Shown piece by piece: positions 4,696 to 30,698 of a stretch of DNA of 64,000 nt; within the stretch, counting starts at the first letter, position 1; every line of letters starts with the position of its first letter. Position numbers and translations under genes: made by a program. Under the pieces are notes generated by a model, which saw nothing but the letters and a program-made list of their open reading frames with translations, was not told the DNA's origin and made no database searches. This DNA comes from an uncultured Clostridia bacterium. Lineage in GTDB: Bacteria > Bacillota > Clostridia > Tissierellales > DATGTQ01. The stretch is from NCBI GenBank assembly GCA_964447805.1, contig CAYUTQ010000005.1, forward strand, positions 8,398-72,397. Direction: 5' to 3'.

Positions 4696-6544
4696 AATAG
4701 CCATCATGAATTTCAAAAGAAATATAAAGACTTACAGCTTGTATCTGATGGCAATGATTTTTTCTGTAGCTGCTTATTACAATTTTTTGTCTATGAGATA
4801 CAATCCTCAATTTTTAGAATTTAAAGAAGTATCAACTTATGTTGAAGGGACATCCTATATGGCTTCCATGCTTATGATAATGTTTTTGATATTTTTCATA
4901 GTGTATTCCAGCAATTTTTTCTTAAATCAAAGAAAAAAGGAAATAGGTGTTTATGCTTTCATGGGAATTGACAATTATAAAATAGCACTTATCTTTGCTT
5001 CTGAAGGGCTATTACTTGGGATGTTGTCTTTAGTCATTGGATTAATAGTTGGAATACTATTTAGCAAATTGTTTATGATGATACTTGCAAAAGTAGCTCT
5101 TTTAGATATGACAATTAAGTTTTTCATATCAAAAAAAGCTATTGTTGGAACAATCATTGCCTATTCAATTATTTTGATTATTACATTTTTAAAAGGATAT
5201 TTTGATATCGTAAGAACTAATTTAATTGATTTGTTAAATTCATTAAAAAAAGAAGAAGAACTTCCAAAAGTTAATTACTTTAAAGGAATTGCTTCAATAA
5301 TAATTATTGGCGTAGCATATTTTATTGCAATTAACTATGAAAAATTGGGTTTTGATATAACTTTTTTAGTTACAGTACTTCTTATTGTATGGGGAACTTA
5401 TTGGCTATTTGGCTCTTTTTTCTCCATGGTCATAAGGCATTATATAAACAAAAAAAGTTATCTTTATAAAGAGGTAAATATCATAAGTGTTTCAAACATA
5501 GCTTTTAGAATAAAAAACAATTATAGAACCCTTGCAGCAGTAGCAGTTTTAATAACAACTTGTATAACTTGTTTTGGAACAGTTAGCTCTCTTAAATATT
5601 ATGTGGGGAAAAACCACAAAATAGAAGTTCCCTATACTATTTCTTATATTTCTAATGATGAAGAAGAAATAAAAAAAGTAGATGAAATTGTGGAAAATTC
5701 AAATCATAAAGTAGAACTTAAAGAAAAGGCCAATTTCTTATATTTACCTGATCGTGAAGTTGTAGTATTGAAGTTTTCTGATTTTGAAAATATATTGTTA
5801 GATTTAAAAGTTGAGAATAGAGAAAAAATAACATCTAAATTCAATTTATCAAAAGGTGAAGCAATATATATAGAAAGACCTAAAACAATGCTAACTACAT
5901 TAGAAAAACAGAAAAGTATTGCTATAGGAGATAAGAAATATAATATAAAAGTTAATACCAAAGTTCCTCTTTTAGGTAATGGGGTGCCTTTTCCTTGCAT
6001 AGTTGTAAACGATAAGGAATATGAGGTATTGAAATCACAATTTGATGAAAGTGGGTTCAATGGGATTATATTGGATAATCCAGATGATACAAAAGATTTA
6101 ATTTTTAAATTAGCTGAAACACTTCCAAAAGAATCTAGCCTATATGGCTATTGGGTAGCTGGTGCAACATTTTATGATTTTGCAGGAATTGTTTATTTTA
6201 TAGGTGCTTTTTTATCTCTTGTATTTGTGTTTGCTACTGGTAGTATAATCTATTTCAAGACCTTGAGCGAATCCTTCAGAGATAAGAACAAATATGAAAT
6301 ACTCAAAAAATTAGGAACTACAGATTTTGAGATATACAAATCAGTTTCAAAACAGGTGGGAATCTTTTTTATACTTCCACTCATAGTTGGAGCAATTCAC
6401 AGCATGGTTGCTATTTCAGTATTGAGTGATTTGATGGACTATAGTTTAGTTGTACCAACAATTATAAGTATAGCTGTATTTGCATTGGTATACGGTATAT
6501 TTTATATGTTTACTACAAAAAAGTTTATAACTGTGGTTCAATAA
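4682..6544 (+). CDS. FtsX-like ABC permease, BceB type
   Basis: About 10 hydrophobic segments, RKKEIGVY..MG motif, large extracellular domain, KYEILKKLG; overlaps the ATPase stop. Confidence 0.9.
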   Translation: MSSFKIAIMNFKRNIKTYSLYLMAMIFSVAAYYNFLSMRYNPQFLEFKEVSTYVEGTSYMASMLMIMFLIFFIVYSSNFFLNQRKKEIGVYAFMGIDNYKIALIFASEGLLLGMLSLVIGLIVGILFSKLFMMILAKVALLDMTIKFFISKKAIVGTIIAYSIILIITFLKGYFDIVRTNLIDLLNSLKKEEELPKVNYFKGIASIIIIGVAYFIAINYEKLGFDITFLVTVLLIVWGTYWLFGSFFSMVIRHYINKKSYLYKEVNIISVSNIAFRIKNNYRTLAAVAVLITTCITCFGTVSSLKYYVGKNHKIEVPYTISYISNDEEEIKKVDEIVENSNHKVELKEKANFLYLPDREVVVLKFSDFENILLDLKVENREKITSKFNLSKGEAIYIERPKTMLTTLEKQKSIAIGDKKYNIKVNTKVPLLGNGVPFPCIVVNDKEYEVLKSQFDESGFNGIILDNPDDTKDLIFKLAETLPKESSLYGYWVAGATFYDFAGIVYFIGAFLSLVFVFATGSIIYFKTLSESFRDKNKYEILKKLGTTDFEIYKSVSKQVGIFFILPLIVGAIHSMVAISVLSDLMDYSLVVPTIISIAVFALVYGIFYMFTTKKFITVVQ

Positions 6545-21689: not shown

Positions 21690-24613
21690 TTACTTTTTCA
21701 ATTTAACAATATTATTAAATACTTCTTCATTTTCCTTTATCTTATTTTCATTACCCAATACACATAGATAATCTTGTTTCATTGTATTTTCAAGAATAAG
21801 TGAAAGGTCTCTTATGTTTTCAAGTTTTGTGCTTAGCACTTCATCTCTTGTTCTTTGTATTTCATCTTGACTAATATTTGAAATATATCTTATTGTTGCA
21901 ATTTGTCCCTTCATGTGAGGAGTCAAAGCTGGATCTAGACGACTCATGGTTCCTATTATGAATGTTGTCAAATCAGATTCATCTAGGTTTAAGTTTTTAA
22001 TATAATCTGCCATACTATCATAAGTATTTATAGTTTCTTTTAGATTAGGGTCCCTATAGGAGTACGTAACTACATGACCTGTAGTATCAAAGGATATACC
22101 TGCACCGTAAGCTCCCCCTCGTGCTCTAATTCTATTGTGAAGGTAATCCCCATTTAATATAGTAGCTAGAACTAACATACTACCATTGTAGTCATATCCA
22201 AGCTTTTTAAAATTATAGCCTTTAGATACATATTGGACATTGCCAGATGAAAATATTCCTTCATTCAATTTTTCTTCAGAAAAACTAAATTTCTTACTTT
22301 CTATTTTTTCTGTATTGAGTGATTTTGTTACAACTTTTAGATTGTCTTTAATAATGGAGAAGTCTTCCTTATCTCCCGTGAAGGATACAATTAAATTATT
22401 AATATTAAATATCTTTTTGTAAACTGAATTGAGATTGGACATGATTTCTTCACTATTTTCATCAAAGTTTTCTAGTATATCTGAAAGAAACCAATAGAAA
22501 TCTAGTCCATTTACTTTATCCATATATCTCATAGTAGGTGAGAAATAGGAACCAACTCTTACAGATGCTATAGAATGACCCATATCATATATAACCATTT
22601 CTATTCTTGATTTAAGTTGTTGAAGCAATTCTTTAACTCGTTTTTTGTCTTCTAATTTAGTTTCTGTAATCAATGTATTTGTAAGTTCTAATAATTTAAC
22701 TATATTATCTCCTATAGCTTTGCCATTGATGTTAAACTTAGGATGGAAAACTTCGTTACACCCATTTTCTCCATATGCATTGACATTAAAATTAATTCCA
22801 CCAGTATTTACATATATTTCATTTGAGAGATCTGAATAAGTCATATTCTTTGTATCCATTTTTCCTAGAAGCCAAGTCAATATATTTGCATATGGAATTA
22901 ATTCATCATCAAGCGTGCTTATATCAAAATAAAAGTCTACATAGGCAATCTTACTAGTAAAAATATCATGATAAAGTATAGTATAGTTATCTTTTTTGAT
23001 TATATTTTGAGGAATAACTAAAGCTTTAGGCTCTACATCAGCTAAAGATAGCCTTGGAATTGTAGCTTTAGCTTCTTCAGTATCATCAGACAATTGAATT
23101 GTTTTAAGTTTTTCATTTTGTGCAATTAAATTATTAATGTCATCTTCAGCAAGGGATTGTTTATAAGCAGCTAACTTTTTCTTTGTTTCATTAATTTTTT
23201 CTTCTCCCAATCCTTTTTTAGGTTCTATAATGACCATAGAACTATGGGAGTTATTAATTATTCTCTCTTCAATGAATTTTTCAAAGTAACCATTATTAAT
23301 ATTATTTCTAAGTTTTTTTATGGTTTCATCATATTGTAGATGAGTTGTAGGGCTACTATCATACAACCAGCTATCCAAGGACTGTATATTATATATATAA
23401 GTCCTTTAGTTGGGAATTTTCCAGCTTCTCTTAGATTGTATTCAACTATATTTATGCAAGCTTCTATTAGTTTTTTATCGATACCTTCTTTAACTAATTT
23501 GTTTAGAGTATCATAAACTATTTTTTCAAATTCATCTTTTTTGTCTATTGATGTATTTTTTGCAACAATGCCAAACCCTAGCTGTATACTATCTGTTACC
23601 ATAGGCAATATATCTTCTCCTATTCCACCGTTGATTAATGCTATTTTAAGTGGAGCAGCTTGAGATTCTATTAATAATTGACTTAATATACTACTCATTA
23701 AATAAGTTTCTGGATCTGTTTTTTCCCCCAATACAAAGTTTAAGCTTAAATAAGTACGGTTTTCTGCACTTTCATCTATTGATATAGGGTAGTAATCCAT
23801 TAATTCATTTCTAGATGTAAAAGGTTTTTGAACATCAATATGAGAATCTACTTCTATTTTATCAAATTTGGATAGATAGTTTTCATCTATAAATTTAAGA
23901 TGTTTTTGTATATCTCCATTGCCATATAAGTATATATAGCTATTTGATGGATGATAGAATTTTTTATGAAAATCCAAAAAAGATTTATAACTAAGTTCTG
24001 GAATAACATCAGGATTGCCACCAGAGGAATATTGATAACAAGTATTTGGATAGAGGGATTTGCTTATATTTTCTTCTAGAATTGTTTCAGGAGATGAATA
24101 GGCTCCTTTCATTTCATTATATACAACACCTTTATACTCTATATCATCTTCATTATTAAATAATTCATAATGCCAACCTTCTTGCATAAATATTTCTGGT
24201 ATTTCATATATACTAGGATAAAAAACTGCATCTAAATAGACATCCATGAGATTTAAAAAGTCTTTTTCATTTCTACTAGCTATGGGAAATATCGTCTTAT
24301 CACTAAAGGTCATGGCATTAATAAATGTTTGTAATGATCCCTTTAACATATCCATAAAAGGTTCTTTAGTTGTGTATTTTCTAGAACCAGATAGAACACA
24401 ATGCTCTATTATATGTGGAACCCCAGTACTATCTGATGGAGGTGTTCTAAATCCAATGGAAAATACTTTATTGTCATCATCATTTTCTAGATGTAGCAAT
24501 TTTGCACCTGATTTTTCGTGTTGAAATATTCTTGCAATTGATTGTATTTCTTTTACTTCATACTCATCTACTAAATTAAATCCAAAATAATTTTTACCAA
24601 TTTTAAAAGTCAA
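21690..24613 (-). pseudogene. Insulinase-family (M16C, PreP-like) metallopeptidase, frameshifted by a 2-nt insertion
   Basis: HIIEH zinc motif, INAMTFSDKT, GVVYNEMKGA, IRARGGAYG; 2,924 nt is 974 codons plus 2 nt; shift in the (AT)4 tract at 23391-23398. Confidence 0.9.
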
Positions 24614-24767: not shown

Positions 24768-24917
24768 ATGAATAACAAAAAATTAATAATCATTAGATAT
24801 TTTATATTGGCCACTTTGATATTTAGCATTGTAGGATATAAAGAAAATGTAGATGTTTATAATGTTATTTCAGTACTTAATTTTTCGCAATGTTTTACCA
24901 AAAGAAATAAGATTTAA
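24768..24917 (+). pseudogene. 49-aa ORF, probably a decayed lipoprotein gene
   Basis: MNNKKLIIIRYFILATLIFSIVGYKEN...; RBS AGGTGA; extended -10 TGCTATAAT upstream; IVGY is one base from the lipobox IVGC. Confidence 0.4.
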
Positions 24918-24965
24918 ATCCATAAAAACACTTCCTATAAAATATACGTAAATAATGTAAACAAA

Positions 24966-25013
24966 AACCTACTTTAAAGTAGGTTGAATTATATACATTT
25001 ATTGTATATAATT
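24966..25013 (+). promoter_or_regulatory. Sigma-A promoter with two adjacent palindromes
   Basis: TTGAAT(24984)-N17-TATAAT(25007); perfect 20-bp palindrome AACCTACTTTAAAGTAGGTT (24966-24985); 11-bp IR AATTATATACA-N5-TGTATATAATT (24987-25013). Confidence 0.75.
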
Positions 25014-25047
25014 ACAAACAATAGAACAAGCAGGGTGATGTTGAAAA

Positions 25048-25191
25048 ATGAAGAAGAAACTGTTAGTACTGATAGCGTTATTTACAATGACATTAGGGGT
25101 TGTGTTAAACCGTGGACAACCTGTTAAGTATGTGGTTCAGGATGATGGAGAAATTGAATGGAATAGTTACATTGAAGGAGAACTATTATAG
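25048..25191 (+). CDS. 47-aa secreted-type small peptide (not in the ORF track)
   Basis: MKKKLLVLIALFTMTLGVVLNRGQPVKYVVQDDGEIEWNSYIEGELL; RBS AGGGTGA; its own promoter; basic N-terminus, hydrophobic core, acidic tail. Confidence 0.7.
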   Translation: MKKKLLVLIALFTMTLGVVLNRGQPVKYVVQDDGEIEWNSYIEGELL

Positions 25192-25215
25192 TATAGAATA
25201 TCAGATTTATTTTTA

Positions 25216-26175
25216 ATTAATTATGTTAATATAATATTTTAGGCACGATTTTCCGAACGCTATAAAATGTAGTTAAGAAAGAAGTGTCTAAAGTGGTAAA
25301 AAGAGATATACAGAAGAACATAAGAGTTTGGCTGTAGAACTTTATAATGCTAGTAAATTCCTAAAAAATGTTAGCGCCGAATATGGCTTATCTAAATTCA
25401 CAATATTAATATGGGTAAAAAAGCTGATTCTATAGCAATCAATAAAAATGAAGTAATTACTCAGGCTGATTATGAGGTTTTATTAAAGAAAATAGCTAGA
25501 GTAGAAGGGAAAAATGAAATACTAAAAAAGCAATGGTCATATTTACATAGTATTTAAGAAGTTTAAATCTTTTATTTTAAAAAGCAGGGTAGAAAGTAGA
25601 GAAAATATAATAAATAGAGATTTCTCTAATACTGACATTAACCAAAATAGGTAACTGATATTATCTATATTCATGACATTAAAGATGGTTGGTGTATCTA
25701 GTTTCTGATATGGATCTTAACAGCAGAAAGGTAATTAGAGGTCTCCATGTCTAAGAATATGTATACTAAATTAACTATTAAAGCAGTAAAAAAATATTTA
25801 TAAATTTCATAAACCTAATGAAAACTTAATATCTCATAGTGATTTAGAAAGTCAATATACAAGTTGTGAATTTGAAGAATGTATTAAAAAGCTTAGAATA
25901 ACCTATTCCTTTAGTGGTAAGGGCAATTCTTATGATAATGTTTGTATCGAATCCTTCCATTCTGTATTAAAAACGGAAGAGGTTAATTTAGTTAAATATT
26001 TCGATTTTGATGCTACAAGATTTTCAATATTTGAATACATTGAATCATGGTACAACAGAGAAAGAATACACAGCTCTTTGGGCTATATTAGCCCCCAAGA
26101 GTGGGAAGATAATACTAAGAGAGGATCATAAAAAAGCATTCGAAAAGATATATCTATTTTATTGACATAAGTCCA
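25216..26175 (+). mobile_element. Degenerate IS3/IS150-family element
   Basis: orfA remnant GKKRYTEEHKSLAVELY...EYGLS...EILKK; rve remnant HSDLESQYTS...KGNSYDNVCIESFHSVLK...WYNRERIHSSLGY; right end ...ATTGACATAAGTCCA; left-end core TTATGTTAATATAATA matches 14/16. Confidence 0.9.
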
Positions 26176-26198
26176 TTATATGCAAAAGATTGGAGGGG

Positions 26199-26735
26199 AT
26201 GAAGATAAAAATAATAAGTAAATTTACTCATAAACCAGATATAACAACTCAATGTAGATTAAATTCTATTGCTGATATATTCCAATATAATGGAATAAAA
26301 TTAAGTGAAGAAATGTGTTTTGGTTTAGGTGAAGCTTTAACTTTTGAGTACTGGTTAGATACAAGCAGTAAATTTCCTACAATCATAATAAATGGATTTG
26401 ATTTTAATATGGAAAATAGGTTATTTAATAAATTTAACGTTAAAAGAATAATTCATTATAATAGTAAAATAGATAATGAAGATATAATTAACTGTATAAA
26501 TAAAAATGATTTAGTAATGGTAGATTTAGATAGATATTATCTAGAGTATCTTGATATAACGAAGGCACACTTTGGATTTCATTCAGTAATTATAATAGGG
26601 TATAAAATTGAAAATAAAATTTTATATTGGGGAATTATTGATGGATTTAAAAAAGAATTGATATGGTATCCAGATAAAAAATTACGTATTGCAAGAGATT
26701 CAACTTGTGGAATTTTAAAATCTAATAAGCTGTGA
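26199..26735 (+). pseudogene. BtrH N-terminal-like (papain-fold) protein, truncated
   Basis: TQCRLNSIAD..G..LSEEMCFGLG, DRYYLEY, HFGFHSVIIIGY, IIDG; ends at TGA just before the IS630 remnant; RBS GGAGGGG before ATG 26199. Confidence 0.75.
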
Positions 26736-26842
26736 CTGCTAGTATTTATAATACAAGCAGCAATCCTTAAAGATTAATAAAGGTGGTAACAAGCTAATTT
26801 TACTTATTATATTAATATAGATAAACAAGTTTAAAAATCAAA

Positions 26843-27369
26843 CTATTTATAATAATATCTAGCATTAACAAGAGATTTAGTTTCAGCTTTATTAGAGTTG
26901 GCATAATTAAAATAATCTGAAATGAAATCTTTAATTTCATCAATTGTGGTTTTTGCTTTATATTCATAGGAATAGGATTTTAATTTATTCCATATATTTT
27001 CTTGTAAATTCAACATTGGTGAATAAGATAGAAGATTTTAAATAAATAATTTCTCCTCATGCTGGCTAATAAATTCTTGAACAGCTTTTGAAGCGTGAAC
27101 TCTAGCATTATCCCAAATCATGAACACTCTTTTATTCTTGTTTATGTTTAGTAGTTTTTTAAAAAATTTAATAATTGCGTTAGAAGTAATTCTCTCATCG
27201 GAAGAGTACACATTTACAATTGAATCAAAGTTTTTGCTAATCTCAGCAGCACTGATGATATTAACGCTTTTACGGCTACCATTTCTTTCTATTGCAGGGG
27301 GTTTCCTATGGAACTCCAACTGCGATAGTTATTGGATCCTACTTTGATTTTGGTTTTATCTTGAATATA
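26843..27369 (-). mobile_element. IS630-family transposase remnant (3' half only)
   Basis: YIQDKT..RSWS, 1-nt frameshift, PPAIERNG, IWDNARVHASK, in-frame TAA, then LLSYSPMLNLQENIWNKLK (degenerate LPxYSPxLNPxExxW). Confidence 0.88.
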
Positions 27370-27370
27370 T

Positions 27371-27577
27371 AAATATGGACAAATTCCTATAGCATTTGTA
27401 AAAGTACTTAAAAAAAATATAACAAATGAAAATGATATTTTAATGTATTGCTTTAAAAGACTTTCAAACTATAAATGTCCACAAAAAGTTATATTTGTAG
27501 ATGACATACCTAAAAATGTTATGGGTAAAGTAGATAAAAAACAGTTGTTTGAATCTTATAAGTTTAAATTAATTTAA
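27371..27577 (+). pseudogene. C-terminal stub of an AMP-dependent synthetase/ligase
   Basis: KYGQIPIAFV...CFKRLSNYKCPQKVIFVDDIPKNVMGKVDKKQL matches the AMP-binding C-terminal (A10 PxxxxGK) pattern; no start codon, abuts the IS630 remnant. Confidence 0.85.
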
Positions 27578-27684
27578 GTATATAACATTTTCATGAACAT
27601 ATGACAATTAATTATAATAATATTAATTTCTAATATACTCAAACACTGTTGTAGATTAAATATTATAAAAAATGGGGGATTTAT

Positions 27685-28953
27685 ATGAATATAAAACTAC
27701 TGAAACAAAAAGACTTTTTTCTACTCATAATGGGGGAGACAGTGTCGCTTATAGGAACAATAATGCAAAATTTTGCATTATCATTATATGTACTTGCAAT
27801 AACACATTCAACTGTTAAATTTGCTTCAGTAACAGCTATAACAATATTCCCTAAACTTATTTTAGGTCCATTTTCAGGGGTCATTGCAGATAGATTTAAT
27901 AGGAAGAAAATTATTGTAGGAACTGATTTAATAAATGGCATTTTAATGGGGATTTATGCTCTGTTATTTTTTATAAATGGACATTTAAGCTTATTGAGTA
28001 TATACATATTAGTTATTTCAATTACAATAACTAATATTATTTTTGAACCTGCAATTCAAACTGTAATTCCTTCAATAGTAGAGAAAGAATCATTAGTTGA
28101 TGCAAATTCAATAGATACATTATTTTCAAGCCTTTCAAATATATTAGCATTAGCTCTTGGTGCAATTTTATATGATAATTTAGGAATAGGTGTTATATTT
28201 ATAATAAATTCTATCAGTTTTATATTATCTGCTATTAGTGAAATTTTTATAAACATACCTAAAAACAATCTAAAAAATGATAAATTAAACTTAAAAATGT
28301 TCTTTTCCGATTTTAAAGAAGGCATCACTTGCATTAAAAATGAAAAATTAATATTTAACATTTTGATTATAATGATTTTCATAAACTTTGCTTTTAATCC
28401 AATCTTTAAAATTGGTTTACCATATATATCAATAAAAGTCTTGGATGGGAATGGAATACAGTACTCTGTTCTACGTATAGCAATAATTTTATCTGGAATA
28501 ACTGCTTCTTTAATCTCATCTAAATTGTGCAAAAAATACACAATAAACAAACTTCTAATTAGAAGTGGTTTAATAATATCACTATGTATGTTTTTGATAT
28601 CTTTTTCTATATCAAAAATTTATTTAAATATTTTTTCAAATACTATAGTACCTTTTATTACGATATTAATTATATGTTTTTTAATGATGCTGATAGCTAC
28701 TTTATGCAATATAGCGGCTGGCACAATAATCCAAGAAACAATTTCATTAGATATGCTTGGAAGAATACAATCAGTAATTATGATGGTATGTACTATAGCT
28801 GTTCCTGCAGGTGAGATGTTCTTTGGATTTATGTTTGATGCTACTAGCCCTGCGATAACAATAGGAATATCTTCATGTATTATATTTGTAACTGTTTTAT
28901 TATCAAGTAAGTATTTTTTAATTTCAAATAATAAACAAAAAATTAAAAATTAA
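27685..28953 (+). CDS. MFS exporter (DHA3/macrolide-efflux-like)
   Basis: 12 hydrophobic segments, GVIADRFNRKKIIV motif A, MLGRIQS. Confidence 0.9.
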   Translation: MNIKLLKQKDFFLLIMGETVSLIGTIMQNFALSLYVLAITHSTVKFASVTAITIFPKLILGPFSGVIADRFNRKKIIVGTDLINGILMGIYALLFFINGHLSLLSIYILVISITITNIIFEPAIQTVIPSIVEKESLVDANSIDTLFSSLSNILALALGAILYDNLGIGVIFIINSISFILSAISEIFINIPKNNLKNDKLNLKMFFSDFKEGITCIKNEKLIFNILIIMIFINFAFNPIFKIGLPYISIKVLDGNGIQYSVLRIAIILSGITASLISSKLCKKYTINKLLIRSGLIISLCMFLISFSISKIYLNIFSNTIVPFITILIICFLMMLIATLCNIAAGTIIQETISLDMLGRIQSVIMMVCTIAVPAGEMFFGFMFDATSPAITIGISSCIIFVTVLLSSKYFLISNNKQKIKN

Positions 28954-29012
28954 CAAATGGTTGGGAGATAAGCGTCAAATCCACTAGAAATGTTTTCTAT
29001 GAGACAATACCC

Positions 29013-29429
29013 TTAAATATCACTAATAAGAGAGGTTATCTCAAATGAAGGAAGAAGAAAAATTTCTCTACAGTTACTTATAATTTTATTTTTTAACTCT
29101 TTTTGTCCAAATGCTTCACATAAAACTATGGATGTTTCAAGCGATTTCTTATATTCTATTTTATTCAATTTATATTCAGCAATTCCTTTCCCATAGTATA
29201 GAATACTTAATCCATTAAAATTTCCTATTTCTTGACAAGCATCAATTCCCATATTAGAAAACTTCAATGCTTTTTCAAAGTTTTTATTTCTTCTGTAAAC
29301 TCCAGCTAAGTTGTGACACAGTTTAGGATACATTTCATCATTAGAATCTACTGAGTTTATACAAAATTCCATTATTTCTTGATATTTGTCTTTATGTCCT
29401 AATCCGTTTAATACAAAAGCTATATTCAT
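29013..29429 (-). pseudogene. C-terminal TPR half of a probable XRE-TPR (RRNPP-like) regulator, 5' part missing
   Basis: Helical repeats KLCHNLAGVYRRNKNFEKALKFSNMGI and LSILYYGKGIAEYKL; sequence is cut at the repeat junction (29430); no RBS. Confidence 0.65.
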
Positions 29430-29430
29430 A

Positions 29431-30669
29431 TAACAGCATTTCTATAGAATCTATTTCCATAGAGGATTATTTTATTCATTTGACGGGAGGGAATATTGAT
29501 GAACAATCTAATTAGGATGGATTTTTATCGTATGAGAAAAAGTAAAACCACATGGATTATTTTGATGTTTTTGATATTAATGATGTTTGCCTCTGTTTAT
29601 ATGTCTTATTCGGATATAGAGTATTACAAGAACAATCCATCTGCATTAGAAAATCTAAAATCATCTTCGGAGGAAGTTAATTGGGGAATGTATATAGGGA
29701 GTGTTTCGGCAAAGTGGTGCGAAGATAATAAAGTTCCCGTTGATGGATTAATCAAAATAAATATTCAGAGCAAAATTGTACTAATGTTTTTAGTTGTGTT
29801 ATTGTGGGTTTTGTAAGTAAAGAAAATACTTCTGGTTTTATTAAAAATATTGCAGGACAAGTATCAAATCGTGGATTTATATTGTTGTCTAAAATGATTA
29901 TCGTAGGGATATATTCATTAATTTTATTGGCAGTAGCAATTGTAACAATATTTGTAAGTAGTAAAATATTGTTTGGATATGTTTTTGAGGAGAATTTAGG
30001 ATTGTTGATAAAATATATTCTTTATCAATGGATATTGCATGTGGCATTTGGATCATTTATGATATTTTTAATTACACTTTTAAAAAATGAAATTGCAAGT
30101 TTATTGATAGGAATTTTAGTTTCTGCTGGTATACTACAAATTGTTGATGCTTTCATAAAATCAAATAAAAAAAGTATAATGTACTTTTTAAATTCAGGAA
30201 ACATTGGACGATTAAGTTTGGGAGATTGTAGACCATTACTTATAGCGGTTGTTTCAATGACAATATATATGGCAATTAGTATGTATGTTATCAATAATAG
30301 AGATATTCAATAAGGAGAGTATTAGGATGAAGTTTGCGTTAATTATTATCATTATTATTTTATTTATTGCTATATTATATTTATATAATTATTGGAAACA
30401 AGTTCGTTCTATTGCTGAGCAATTAAAATTTATTATTTCACATGATACAAATAAAATTATTTTTTGTAATATGAAAGATAAAGAAATAAACAAATTAGCT
30501 AGAGAAATTAATGAATTGATTAATCAATCAAAGGGTTTAAAAAAGGAATATGTAAATAAAGATATTTATTTAAAAAACACTTTAACAAGCTTATCTCATG
30601 ATATAAGAACTCCGTTAACTTCCTTAGATGGTTATATTCAATTACTAAAAGTAAGTGATGATTTGAATA
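29431..30669 (+). repeat. 1,239-bp direct repeat, copy 2
   Basis: Matches 19190-20428. Confidence 0.97.
29499..30313 (+). pseudogene. Duplicate of the frameshifted permease
   Basis: Identical 106-aa and 169-aa ORFs. Confidence 0.9.
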
Positions 30670-30698
30670 TGAGGAAAAAAGTTGATACTATTTTTTAA
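30327..30698 (+). pseudogene. Duplicate histidine kinase truncated after the H-box
   Basis: Identical to 20086 up to VSDDLN, then unrelated MRKKVDTIF*; no ATPase domain. Confidence 0.9.

Follow-up and report, generated by a model that had tools for sequence, protein, structure and literature searches.

In streptococci, shp heads operons for peptides that are made ribosomally and modified after translation (RiPPs) and are matured by radical S-adenosylmethionine (rSAM) enzymes. Lipidated RiPP classes (selidamides, lipolanthines, goadvionins, lipoavitides, and aphotorhaptins) all use GNAT acyltransferases (October 2026; PMC13647313). A different kind of acyl transfer is carried out by the papain-like carrier-protein-dependent transacylases CtaG, BtrH, and AsbE, which share a Cys-His-Asp triad and a two-domain build (PMC12865890, PMC7183216). 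The papers on CtaG-class enzymes name non-ribosomal pathways only; the known transacylases of this kind act in those to butirosin, closthioamide, petrobactin, and aryl-polyene/dialkylresorcinol esters. The locus described here carries a gene for a BtrH-like protein and lies in a stretch of 64,000 nucleotides from an uncultured Clostridia bacterium (GenBank assembly GCA_964447805.1, contig CAYUTQ010000005.1), referred to as the window. In our judgement, positions 24880-29430 of the window are likely to be a dead copy, eroded by deletions, of a RiPP cluster under quorum-sensing control that is intact in Sporanaerobacter acetigenes DSM 13106. The family to which this cluster belongs is apparently a coherent, uncharacterised rSAM RiPP variant with a carrier-protein-dependent transacylase.

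The eroded cluster and its intact counterpart

The BtrH-like open reading frame (ORF) of the window matches the Pfam family BtrH_N (E=2.5e-22, 80 bits against a cut-off of 29.7). A pattern scan of named genomes with this fragment gives no match, and a protein search finds one relative, P0002 (78% identity, 303 aa, BtrH_N and DUF4872). P0002 is encoded on a 9.8-kb contig (L001) that holds genes absent from the window. The contig encodes the BtrH-like protein, a 54-aa ORF ending in GSGCGCDC, a 450-aa rSAM/SPASM protein, an 82-aa acyl carrier protein (ACP), a 508-aa AMP-forming ligase, and a 421-aa transporter of the major facilitator superfamily (MFS), with debris of an IS66 insertion sequence (IS) between the rSAM and ACP genes. 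When the rSAM protein of L001 is used as query, a 77%-identical protein is found in S. acetigenes, and the corresponding contig of strain DSM 13106 (FQXR01000028.1, L005) aligns with the window in three collinear blastn blocks with 97.5-99% DNA identity and gaps of 756 bp and 3381 bp:

Block 1: L005 330-2180 = window 24880-26728
Block 2: L005 2937-3580 = window 26729-27372
Block 3: L005 6962-9027 = window 27364-29430

Given these blocks, the window derives from a bacterium closely related to S. acetigenes. The intact order in L005 is regulator, 47-aa ORF, IS3 debris, BtrH-like gene (340 aa), 41-aa precursor, IS630 debris, rSAM/SPASM gene, ACP gene, ligase gene, MFS gene, and regulator. Every cluster ORF is complete in L005 and in another locus, L006, both of which have the IS3 and IS630 debris at the same positions as the window. 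L001 has the same gene order as the window and L005 with 72-83% DNA identity.

Gene content, synteny, and both deletions can be read directly from these alignments. Deletion 1 (756 bp relative to L005) removed residues 178-340 of the BtrH-like protein and the precursor gene except its last 14 nt; the scar matches L005 2937-2950, the end of the L005 precursor ORF (2825-2950). Deletion 2 (3381 bp relative to L005) removed the rSAM gene, the ACP gene, and ligase residues 1 to ~441 (87% of the ligase). No second copy of the lost genes is found in the window, and both regulator copies that flank the L005 cluster are truncated in it. With the core genes deleted and both regulators truncated, the window copy makes nothing. 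The features of the locus, whose G+C content is 23-31% (AT-rich, as are the surroundings), are as follows.

24880..24923, minus strand: remnant of the left RRNPP-type regulator copy, start codon and ~14 codons (MDLNLISFGKTLRK), aligning with the regulator-gene 5' ends in L005, L003, and L016
24966..24985: perfect palindrome AACCTACTTTAAAGTAGGTT, candidate regulator operator, abutting the -35 box before the 47-aa ORF
24984..25012, plus strand: sigma-70-like promoter TTGAAT-17-TATAAT (10/12 consensus positions), facing the 47-aa ORF and the former operon
25048..25191, plus strand: intact 47-aa ORF with a signal-peptide-like N-terminus, sequence MKKKLLVLIALFTMTLGVVLNRGQPVKYVVQDDGEIEWNSYIEGELL
25216..26174 (approximate), plus strand: IS3-family transposase debris with broken reading frames, located by tblastn to L005 products
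26199..26735, plus strand: truncated gene for the BtrH-like, putatively papain-fold transacylase, residues 1-177 of 340, ending in one foreign codon and a stop
26729..26742, plus strand: final 14 nt of the RiPP precursor gene (GCTGTGACTGCTAG, coding ..CDC-stop), a scar at the right edge of deletion 1
26846..27319, minus strand: IS630-family transposase remnant, 158 stop-broken codons, 96.8% identical to the L005 remnant
27364..27372: junction of deletion 2, from overlapping blastn segments and junction sequences, with short A/T-rich microhomology at the join
27371..27577, plus strand: acyl-AMP/ACP ligase stub, a pseudogene, last 68 codons, equal to L005 ligase residues 442-509 of 509 (98.5% identity)
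27685..28953, plus strand: intact MFS exporter, 422 aa, MFS_3/MFS_1, EntS/Mef-like, 99.3% identical to the MFS of L003 and L005
29013..29429, minus strand: fragment of the right RRNPP-type regulator copy, helix-turn-helix/tetratricopeptide repeat (HTH-TPR) type, C-terminal 138 codons, residues 176-313 of 313, HTH half deleted

Homology to L005 begins at window position 24880. The IS3 debris has rve_3 (4.6e-11) and rve_2 (6.5e-11) matches on 25796-26128, and the IS630 remnant matches DDE_3 (9e-10) and transpos_IS630 (1.8e-11). The ligase stub matches AMP-binding_C (3.2e-9); the N-terminal AMP-binding domain is missing from the window, while the orthologs carry both domains. The MFS gene is the sole intact enzyme or transporter gene remaining from the window cluster. 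The right regulator fragment, which breaks off at 29430, gives weak TPR and RNPP_C matches and is 97% identical to residues 176-313 of the L003 regulator.

A preliminary description of this DNA had listed the 47-aa ORF, the IS3 and IS630 pieces, the BtrH-like gene, the ligase stub, the MFS gene, and the TPR fragment, and all of them are found in the window by ORF listing and family scans. Its spacing of ~47 nt between the 47-aa ORF and the BtrH-like gene, once the IS3 debris is taken out, is right as arithmetic, but the figure is hypothetical and assumes the left IS3 edge. The right edge is independently backed, as homology to the IS3-free relative L001 resumes exactly at 26175. The comparison of neighbourhoods that it proposed does recover a complete gene set (L005 and L006) with precursor and rSAM genes, and with the ACP gene that it had predicted to be missing. 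The IS630 piece, which it had called a scar, does not mark the event by which the genes were lost. Debris of both IS3 and IS630 also lies in the strain whose cluster genes are intact; therefore the elements are not the cause, and the loss came about through two IS-independent deletions.

Other copies of the lineage are eroded to different extents. In a Sporanaerobacter metagenome-assembled genome (MAG; L003 1-8748, on an ENA contig of 203.9 kb), a block of phage tail, baseplate, and integrase genes abuts the cluster, and the BtrH-like gene is down to its last 71 codons. The genes for the precursor, rSAM enzyme, ACP, ligase, MFS transporter, and regulator have stayed intact there. The route of erosion is thus different from that of the window. 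In L001 (1197-1320), the BtrH-like gene, 83% DNA-identical to that of the window, has ATA at the position of the window's ATG start, and the IS66 debris lies at 4810-6082; this copy may also be decaying. One lineage is therefore seen at several stages: intact in L005 and L006, with the BtrH-like gene lost beside a phage in L003, with the start codon lost and IS66 debris present in L001, and with the core deleted in the window. Since both ends of the L005 contig lie inside a regulator gene, it was considered as a circular element. This was rejected: a 149-nt gap is left in comparison with the full L003 gene, and two paralogous regulator copies explain the ends equally well.

Genes on both sides of the window cluster are broken as well. 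On the left (21690-24613, minus strand), the gene for an M16C/PreP-type metallopeptidase is broken into a pair of ORFs that overlap, one of 431 aa (Peptidase_M16 and M16_C) and one of 562 aa (M16C_assoc and PreP_C), which suggests a frameshift near 23318-23378 and hence a pseudogene or a sequencing error. Directly to the right (29496-30698, plus strand), an ABC-2 permease is split (29496-29816 and 29804-30313), and a histidine kinase at 30285-30698 is cut to 137 aa with the HisKA start alone left. The zone from 21.7 to 30.7 kb looks like a decaying island within an otherwise dense plus-strand gene array.

A family of clusters in Clostridia

The window BtrH-like fragment is 99.4% identical to residues 1-177 of the L005 protein. 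The helix-rich C-terminal domain DUF4872 is absent from the window copy and present in P0002 and L005. Judged by sequence, the BtrH-like protein matches both the triad and the two-domain build of the CtaG/BtrH/AsbE transacylases. The Cys of the xCR motif is kept in the four alignment rows that cover the site (P0002 is without this N-terminal part). All five members of the alignment have H124/H128 and D148, and the Cys, His, and Asp are all present in the window fragment. Note that the match to C11/H128/D144 of CtaG is a positional correspondence only (PMC7183216). A search of solved structures by sequence with the BtrH-like profile gives nothing useful, the best match being a C39-like peptidase (E=0.3).

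The BtrH-like proteins also score 37-70 bits with the NCBIfam model DarH, whose cut-off is 300. Assignment to a known 'Dar' RiPP system from the NCBIfam 'DarH'/'DarW' matches was rejected, as DarH is a halogenase in the darobactin literature and all scores are far below the cut-off. The NCBIfam DarH is probably the transacylase of the non-ribosomal dialkylresorcinol/aryl-polyene pathway; a study of that pathway reportedly uses the term 'BtrH-like'.

Between the BtrH-like and rSAM genes, L005 encodes a precursor of 41 aa, MKGELIEELQNAIKDNPIDIDNIDLLRGPAGASGSGCGCDC, with an acidic leader and the 8-residue core GSGCGCDC. Precursors across the clusters belong to a single family: the leader is acidic and reads ..E[IL][ED]ELE..(V)TP, the motif G-x-G-[F/C]-G-C-x-C comes after it, and some precursors end in a short tail. 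Their genes exist in 1 to 7 tandem copies. A Cys-containing precursor is found beside the maturase in L005 (2825-2950) and, as homologs, in nine other cluster types; it was not identified in L009 or L100. In Ruminiclostridium hungatei DSM 14427 (L012 9784-12064), five near-identical tandem precursor genes (MDNKKIPVENLIEKVDVSEIDELESTVTPACGGGCG[AG]GC) lie on a 162-bp repeat, and two divergent precursor-like ORFs lie one on either side of the BtrH-like gene.

The maturase gene, wholly deleted from the window, encodes in the orthologs a protein with Radical_SAM, Fer4_12, and SPASM domains. Its CX3CX2C motif (C82, C86, C89) and seven further Cys residues are invariant in 20 clade members. Of the curated NCBIfam models, the enzyme comes nearest to those for the PapB (ranthipeptide) and SCIFF (thioether) maturases, in each case under the cut-off; the scores against equivalog cut-offs are 176/340 bits for PapB, 161/425 for SCIFF, and 132/500 for CcpM. 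None of the NCBIfam equivalogs covers the rSAM enzyme, the precursor, or the BtrH-like protein. A DS phosphopantetheine motif is present in the ACP, and the ligase of the orthologs is a full-length ANL enzyme closest to fatty-acid ligases.

The rSAM clade comprises ~60 distinct sequences at the 90% clustering level. A BtrH_N/DUF4872 gene is observed at every in-clade rSAM locus examined (11 cluster types), though the contig of L009 holds only the C-terminal part of the BtrH-like gene. Identities of the more distant rSAM proteins to the L001 query are:

L007, Clostridium akagii: 45%
L009, L010, and L011, metagenomes: 42%, 37%, and 40%
L099, metagenome: 35%
L100, Anaerocolumna cellulosilytica: 37%
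L101, NCBI assembly GCA_040961595.1: 31%

The reverse search from the BtrH side gives the same association: four of four matches in named genomes (R. hungatei, C. akagii, and two Clostridium MAGs) adjoin the same rSAM clade. As a control, 80 rSAM/SPASM loci (1.29 Mb) were taken from named genomes by generic motifs. One of these is in the clade and is positive, and all 79 outside the clade (<=33% identity) have neither the BtrH-like gene nor the precursor motif.

Carrier-protein or acyl-activation genes are found in 8 of the 11 cluster types, and the carrier gene overlaps or abuts the BtrH-like gene in C. akagii, L011, L014, and L100. A carrier-protein-bound acyl donor is likely. The acyl supply genes differ among the clusters:

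ACP and ligase: Sporanaerobacter (L005) and L001
Adenylation-ACP fusion: C. akagii (L007) and L099
ACP, ketosynthases, and FabA-like dehydratase: L011, L014, and L100
Phosphopantetheinyl transferase and acyl-ACP thioesterase: L009

In the third group (L011 14763-17347, L014 11041-12545, and L100 14795-17272), the genes after the BtrH-like gene encode an ACP, a ketosynthase, a FabA/ApeI/ApeP-like dehydratase, and another ketosynthase, an arrangement which suggests that an unsaturated or polyene-type acyl chain is built within the cluster in this branch. No GNAT/acetyltransferase Pfam family occurs in the gene lists of the loci. Most clusters also encode an M50/HExxH membrane protease, like the leader proteases of daptides and epipeptides, and have ABC/FtsX exporters; in the Sporanaerobacter type the exporter is an MFS protein instead, and there is no protease. 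The L099 cluster has a TldD/PmbA protease along with its adenylation-ACP fusion.

The regulator and the 47-aa ORF

At least 308 homologs, many of them with Pfam RNPP_C, make up the large family of the full-length regulator (313 aa, HTH_19/HTH_3). By sequence, the regulator gives only generic HTH and TPR matches to solved structures, and since such searches were uninformative, a fold search was needed. An AlphaFold model built with 30 homologs is all-helical with a mean confidence (pLDDT) of 90.7. The top Foldseek match of the model is PlcR-PapR (3u3w; E=1.2e-8, TM-score 0.57-0.63), followed by Rgg2, ComR, and PrgX. On the evidence of this model, the regulator is of the RRNPP type and a likely peptide sensor, as the preliminary description had supposed.

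The palindrome AACCTACTTTAAAGTAGGTT is unique in the window, where 0 are expected by chance. Its core CTACTTTAAAGTAG and the promoter do not vary among L005, L003, and L016, the last being a paralogous regulator locus. Note that the promoter is identified as a consensus match only, and the region overall has no excess of such sites. The 47-aa ORF behind the promoter starts with MKKKLLVLIALF..., which resembles a Sec-type signal peptide, and is divergent from the left regulator copy with the palindrome between them. It belongs to no Pfam or NCBIfam family. The ORF is 91% identical in L005 and L006 and truncated in L003, and tblastn of all fetched family loci and the window finds no homolog outside Sporanaerobacter. 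In L001 the cluster is present without this ORF, and a fragment of an AgrA-type LytTR gene lies alongside.

The divergent placement, the conserved palindrome and promoter, the restriction to Sporanaerobacter, and the cluster without the ORF in L001 are why the 47-aa ORF is read as the pro-peptide of the regulator. It probably heads the operon as a secreted pro-peptide of the RRNPP regulator and is not the RiPP precursor. Its size and signal peptide resemble those of PapR.

Similar arrangements are seen at two other loci. In L016 (5835-5955, from a fermentation metagenome), a relic of the small peptide ORF, nine codons long (VKKKLLVII-stop), lies behind the same palindrome and promoter. The regulator paralog of L016 is 85% identical and faces an S41-peptidase/ABC operon. 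From this cassette, the unit of regulator, operator, and peptide seems to be a reusable module. In L099 (3871-4922), the ORF after an RNPP_C-type regulator is also 47 aa long but unrelated, and it begins like a signal peptide or lipoprotein (MFKKLCVIFLSVCIATAMILGVNFSC...). It lies beside a RiPP cluster of the same family, and this fits the pattern of Sporanaerobacter.

Proposed pathway, alternatives, and comparison with known systems

The following pathway is proposed for the intact cluster from homology and gene context. An RRNPP-type HTH-TPR regulator would be transcribed divergently from the palindrome and promoter, and the promoter would drive the secreted 47-aa pro-peptide, the likely signal of the regulator, together with the downstream operon for the BtrH-like transacylase, the 41-aa precursor, the rSAM/SPASM enzyme, the ACP, the AMP-forming ligase, and the MFS transporter. 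The rSAM/SPASM enzyme would cross-link the Cys-rich core, most probably as thioethers. The ligase would load a carboxylic acid onto the ACP, the active-site Cys of the BtrH-like enzyme would relay the acyl group to the peptide, and the MFS transporter would export the product. Thioether chemistry, ACP loading, acyl transfer to the peptide, acyl identity, export, quorum-sensing control, and the signalling by the 47-aa peptide are all predicted in this way.

The intact relatives may then represent an undescribed RiPP class, in which an rSAM-cross-linked G-x-G-[F/C]-G-C-x-C core is acylated by a papain-fold transacylase of the BtrH/CtaG class, not by a GNAT enzyme, and which is under RRNPP control in Sporanaerobacter. 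We hold this view tentatively and give it slightly less than an even chance. The acyl source in such a class would be the cluster-encoded ACP and ligase, the adenylation-ACP fusion, or the ACP, ketosynthase, and dehydratase genes.

Several observations weigh against an acylated, RRNPP-controlled product. No product has been seen for any family member, and the chemistry is wholly inferred. The rSAM enzyme scores below every curated NCBIfam cut-off, so that the type of cross-link is not fixed by homology. AlphaFold modelling of the 178-aa BtrH fragment of the window from a 2-sequence alignment gave a pLDDT of 36, too poor for comparison with CtaG. L010, L012, and L101 have no ACP or ligase gene within a flank of 8-10 kb per side, and a recognisable leader peptidase is missing from the Sporanaerobacter clusters. 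The signalling role of the 47-aa ORF is argued from its position and signal-peptide shape, and no homolog lies beyond Sporanaerobacter. The 'intact' operon of S. acetigenes itself carries IS3 and IS630 debris; with such debris inside the operon, the cluster may be poorly expressed or not expressed.

The chief competing explanation takes the BtrH-like protein for a C39-like leader peptidase, the ACP and ligase for genes with another purpose or an add-on, and the product for an unacylated rSAM-cross-linked peptide. The window protein and those of L011, L099, and L100 do give weak Peptidase_C39_2 matches, which is a further point against a transacylase, and such a peptidase would suit both the three clusters without ACP or ligase nearby and the Sporanaerobacter clusters, which have no other protease. 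However, the best models of the BtrH-like protein are BtrH_N with DUF4872, that is, the two-domain build of transacylases, and DarH. Most clusters already own an M50/HExxH leader protease like those of daptides and epipeptides, and carrier genes overlap or abut the BtrH-like gene in four cluster types. We consider the peptidase explanation unlikely.

Much less probable still is that the 47-aa peptide is the substrate of the operon, acylated by the ligase and the BtrH-like enzyme and exported by the MFS transporter. In the window and in L005, the BtrH-like gene does lie downstream of this ORF, which is the first after the promoter, and the preliminary description had taken it as the biosynthetic peptide. 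That role is not supported: family loci outside Sporanaerobacter lack the ORF, as does the L001 cluster, while Cys-rich precursors lie beside the rSAM gene in nearly all of them; the ORF has a Sec-type signal peptide and sits divergently beside the RRNPP regulator behind the conserved palindrome. The substrate is most likely the 41-aa Cys-rich precursor instead, whose family is conserved across Clostridia. The overall reading of an operon that makes and exports an acylated peptide under peptide sensing was sound in outline, but the identity of the peptide, the central rSAM/SPASM enzyme, and the cause of the decay were wrong or missed.

Almost no weight is left for the idea that unrelated fragments, never one ancestral unit, were juxtaposed by IS3 and IS630. 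Two IS remnants do lie between the fragments, and the surrounding genes are broken too. The genes are nevertheless complete and in the same order in L005 and L006 (97.5-99% identity) and in L001 (72-83%), the IS debris is common to the window and the intact strain, and the linkage of BtrH-like, rSAM, and precursor genes holds across distant Clostridia. The synteny in these three loci rules the idea out and bears out the preliminary proposal that the BtrH-like, ligase, MFS, and regulator fragments were once a single unit.

An acylated, rSAM-cross-linked peptide, if confirmed, would join the cross-linking of a ribosomal peptide by an rSAM enzyme to carrier-dependent papain-like transacylation, chemistries that are not known to occur together. 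It would be a new enzymatic route to ribosomal lipopeptides, the described routes being all of the GNAT type, and the first link of thiotemplated transacylation to ribosomal peptides. For engineering, it would also provide an 8-residue scaffold that is compact and genetically encoded, along with acyl-supply modules that vary. Full-text searches of the open literature found no description of a RiPP system that pairs an rSAM enzyme with an acyltransferase of BtrH-like, papain-like, or ACP-dependent kind (subscription-only papers lie outside this coverage, and an earlier description may exist there), in line with the earlier remark that the unit was not a recognised cluster. The window copy, itself non-functional, serves as a pointer to the family, which is carried by cultured type strains, namely those of Anaerocolumna cellulosilytica, S. 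acetigenes (DSM 13106), C. akagii (DSM 12554), and R. hungatei (DSM 14427).

The PapB and SCIFF (ScfB/CteB-type) thioether RiPPs of anaerobic Firmicutes also have a short Cys-rich precursor with an acidic leader beside an rSAM/SPASM gene. The family described here differs from them in its distinct 8-residue G-x-G-[F/C]-G-C-x-C core, in scores far under the equivalog cut-offs, and in the BtrH-like enzyme that is always present, usually with an ACP and an acyl-activating or acyl-building enzyme. To our knowledge, a BtrH-like enzyme and ACP/acyl-activating genes are not part of PapB or SCIFF clusters.

The Rgg/SHP operons of RaS-RiPPs (e.g., streptide) and the PlcR/PapR system likewise have an RRNPP regulator beside a gene for a small secreted peptide, and a promoter reading into an rSAM-RiPP operon is shared as well. 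Compared with these, sequence identity of the regulator is just 12-17%, and the signal role of the peptide is putative here. Other members of the RiPP family, unlike the Rgg/SHP systems, use an AgrA-type LytTR system.

With BtrH, CtaG, AsbE, and DarH, the BtrH-like protein shares the BtrH_N domain and a helical C-terminal domain, the conserved Cys-His-Asp, and an adjoining carrier protein and adenylating enzyme. The pathways there are non-ribosomal, whereas the presumed acceptor here is a ribosomal, rSAM-modified peptide. With the lipidated RiPPs, the family would share a ribosomal peptide that has thioether rings and an acyl group from dedicated fatty-acid- or polyketide-type genes, both predicted here. 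It would differ from them in that the candidate acyltransferase is papain-fold and ACP-dependent, and in that the rings are formed by an rSAM enzyme and not by a lanthionine synthetase.

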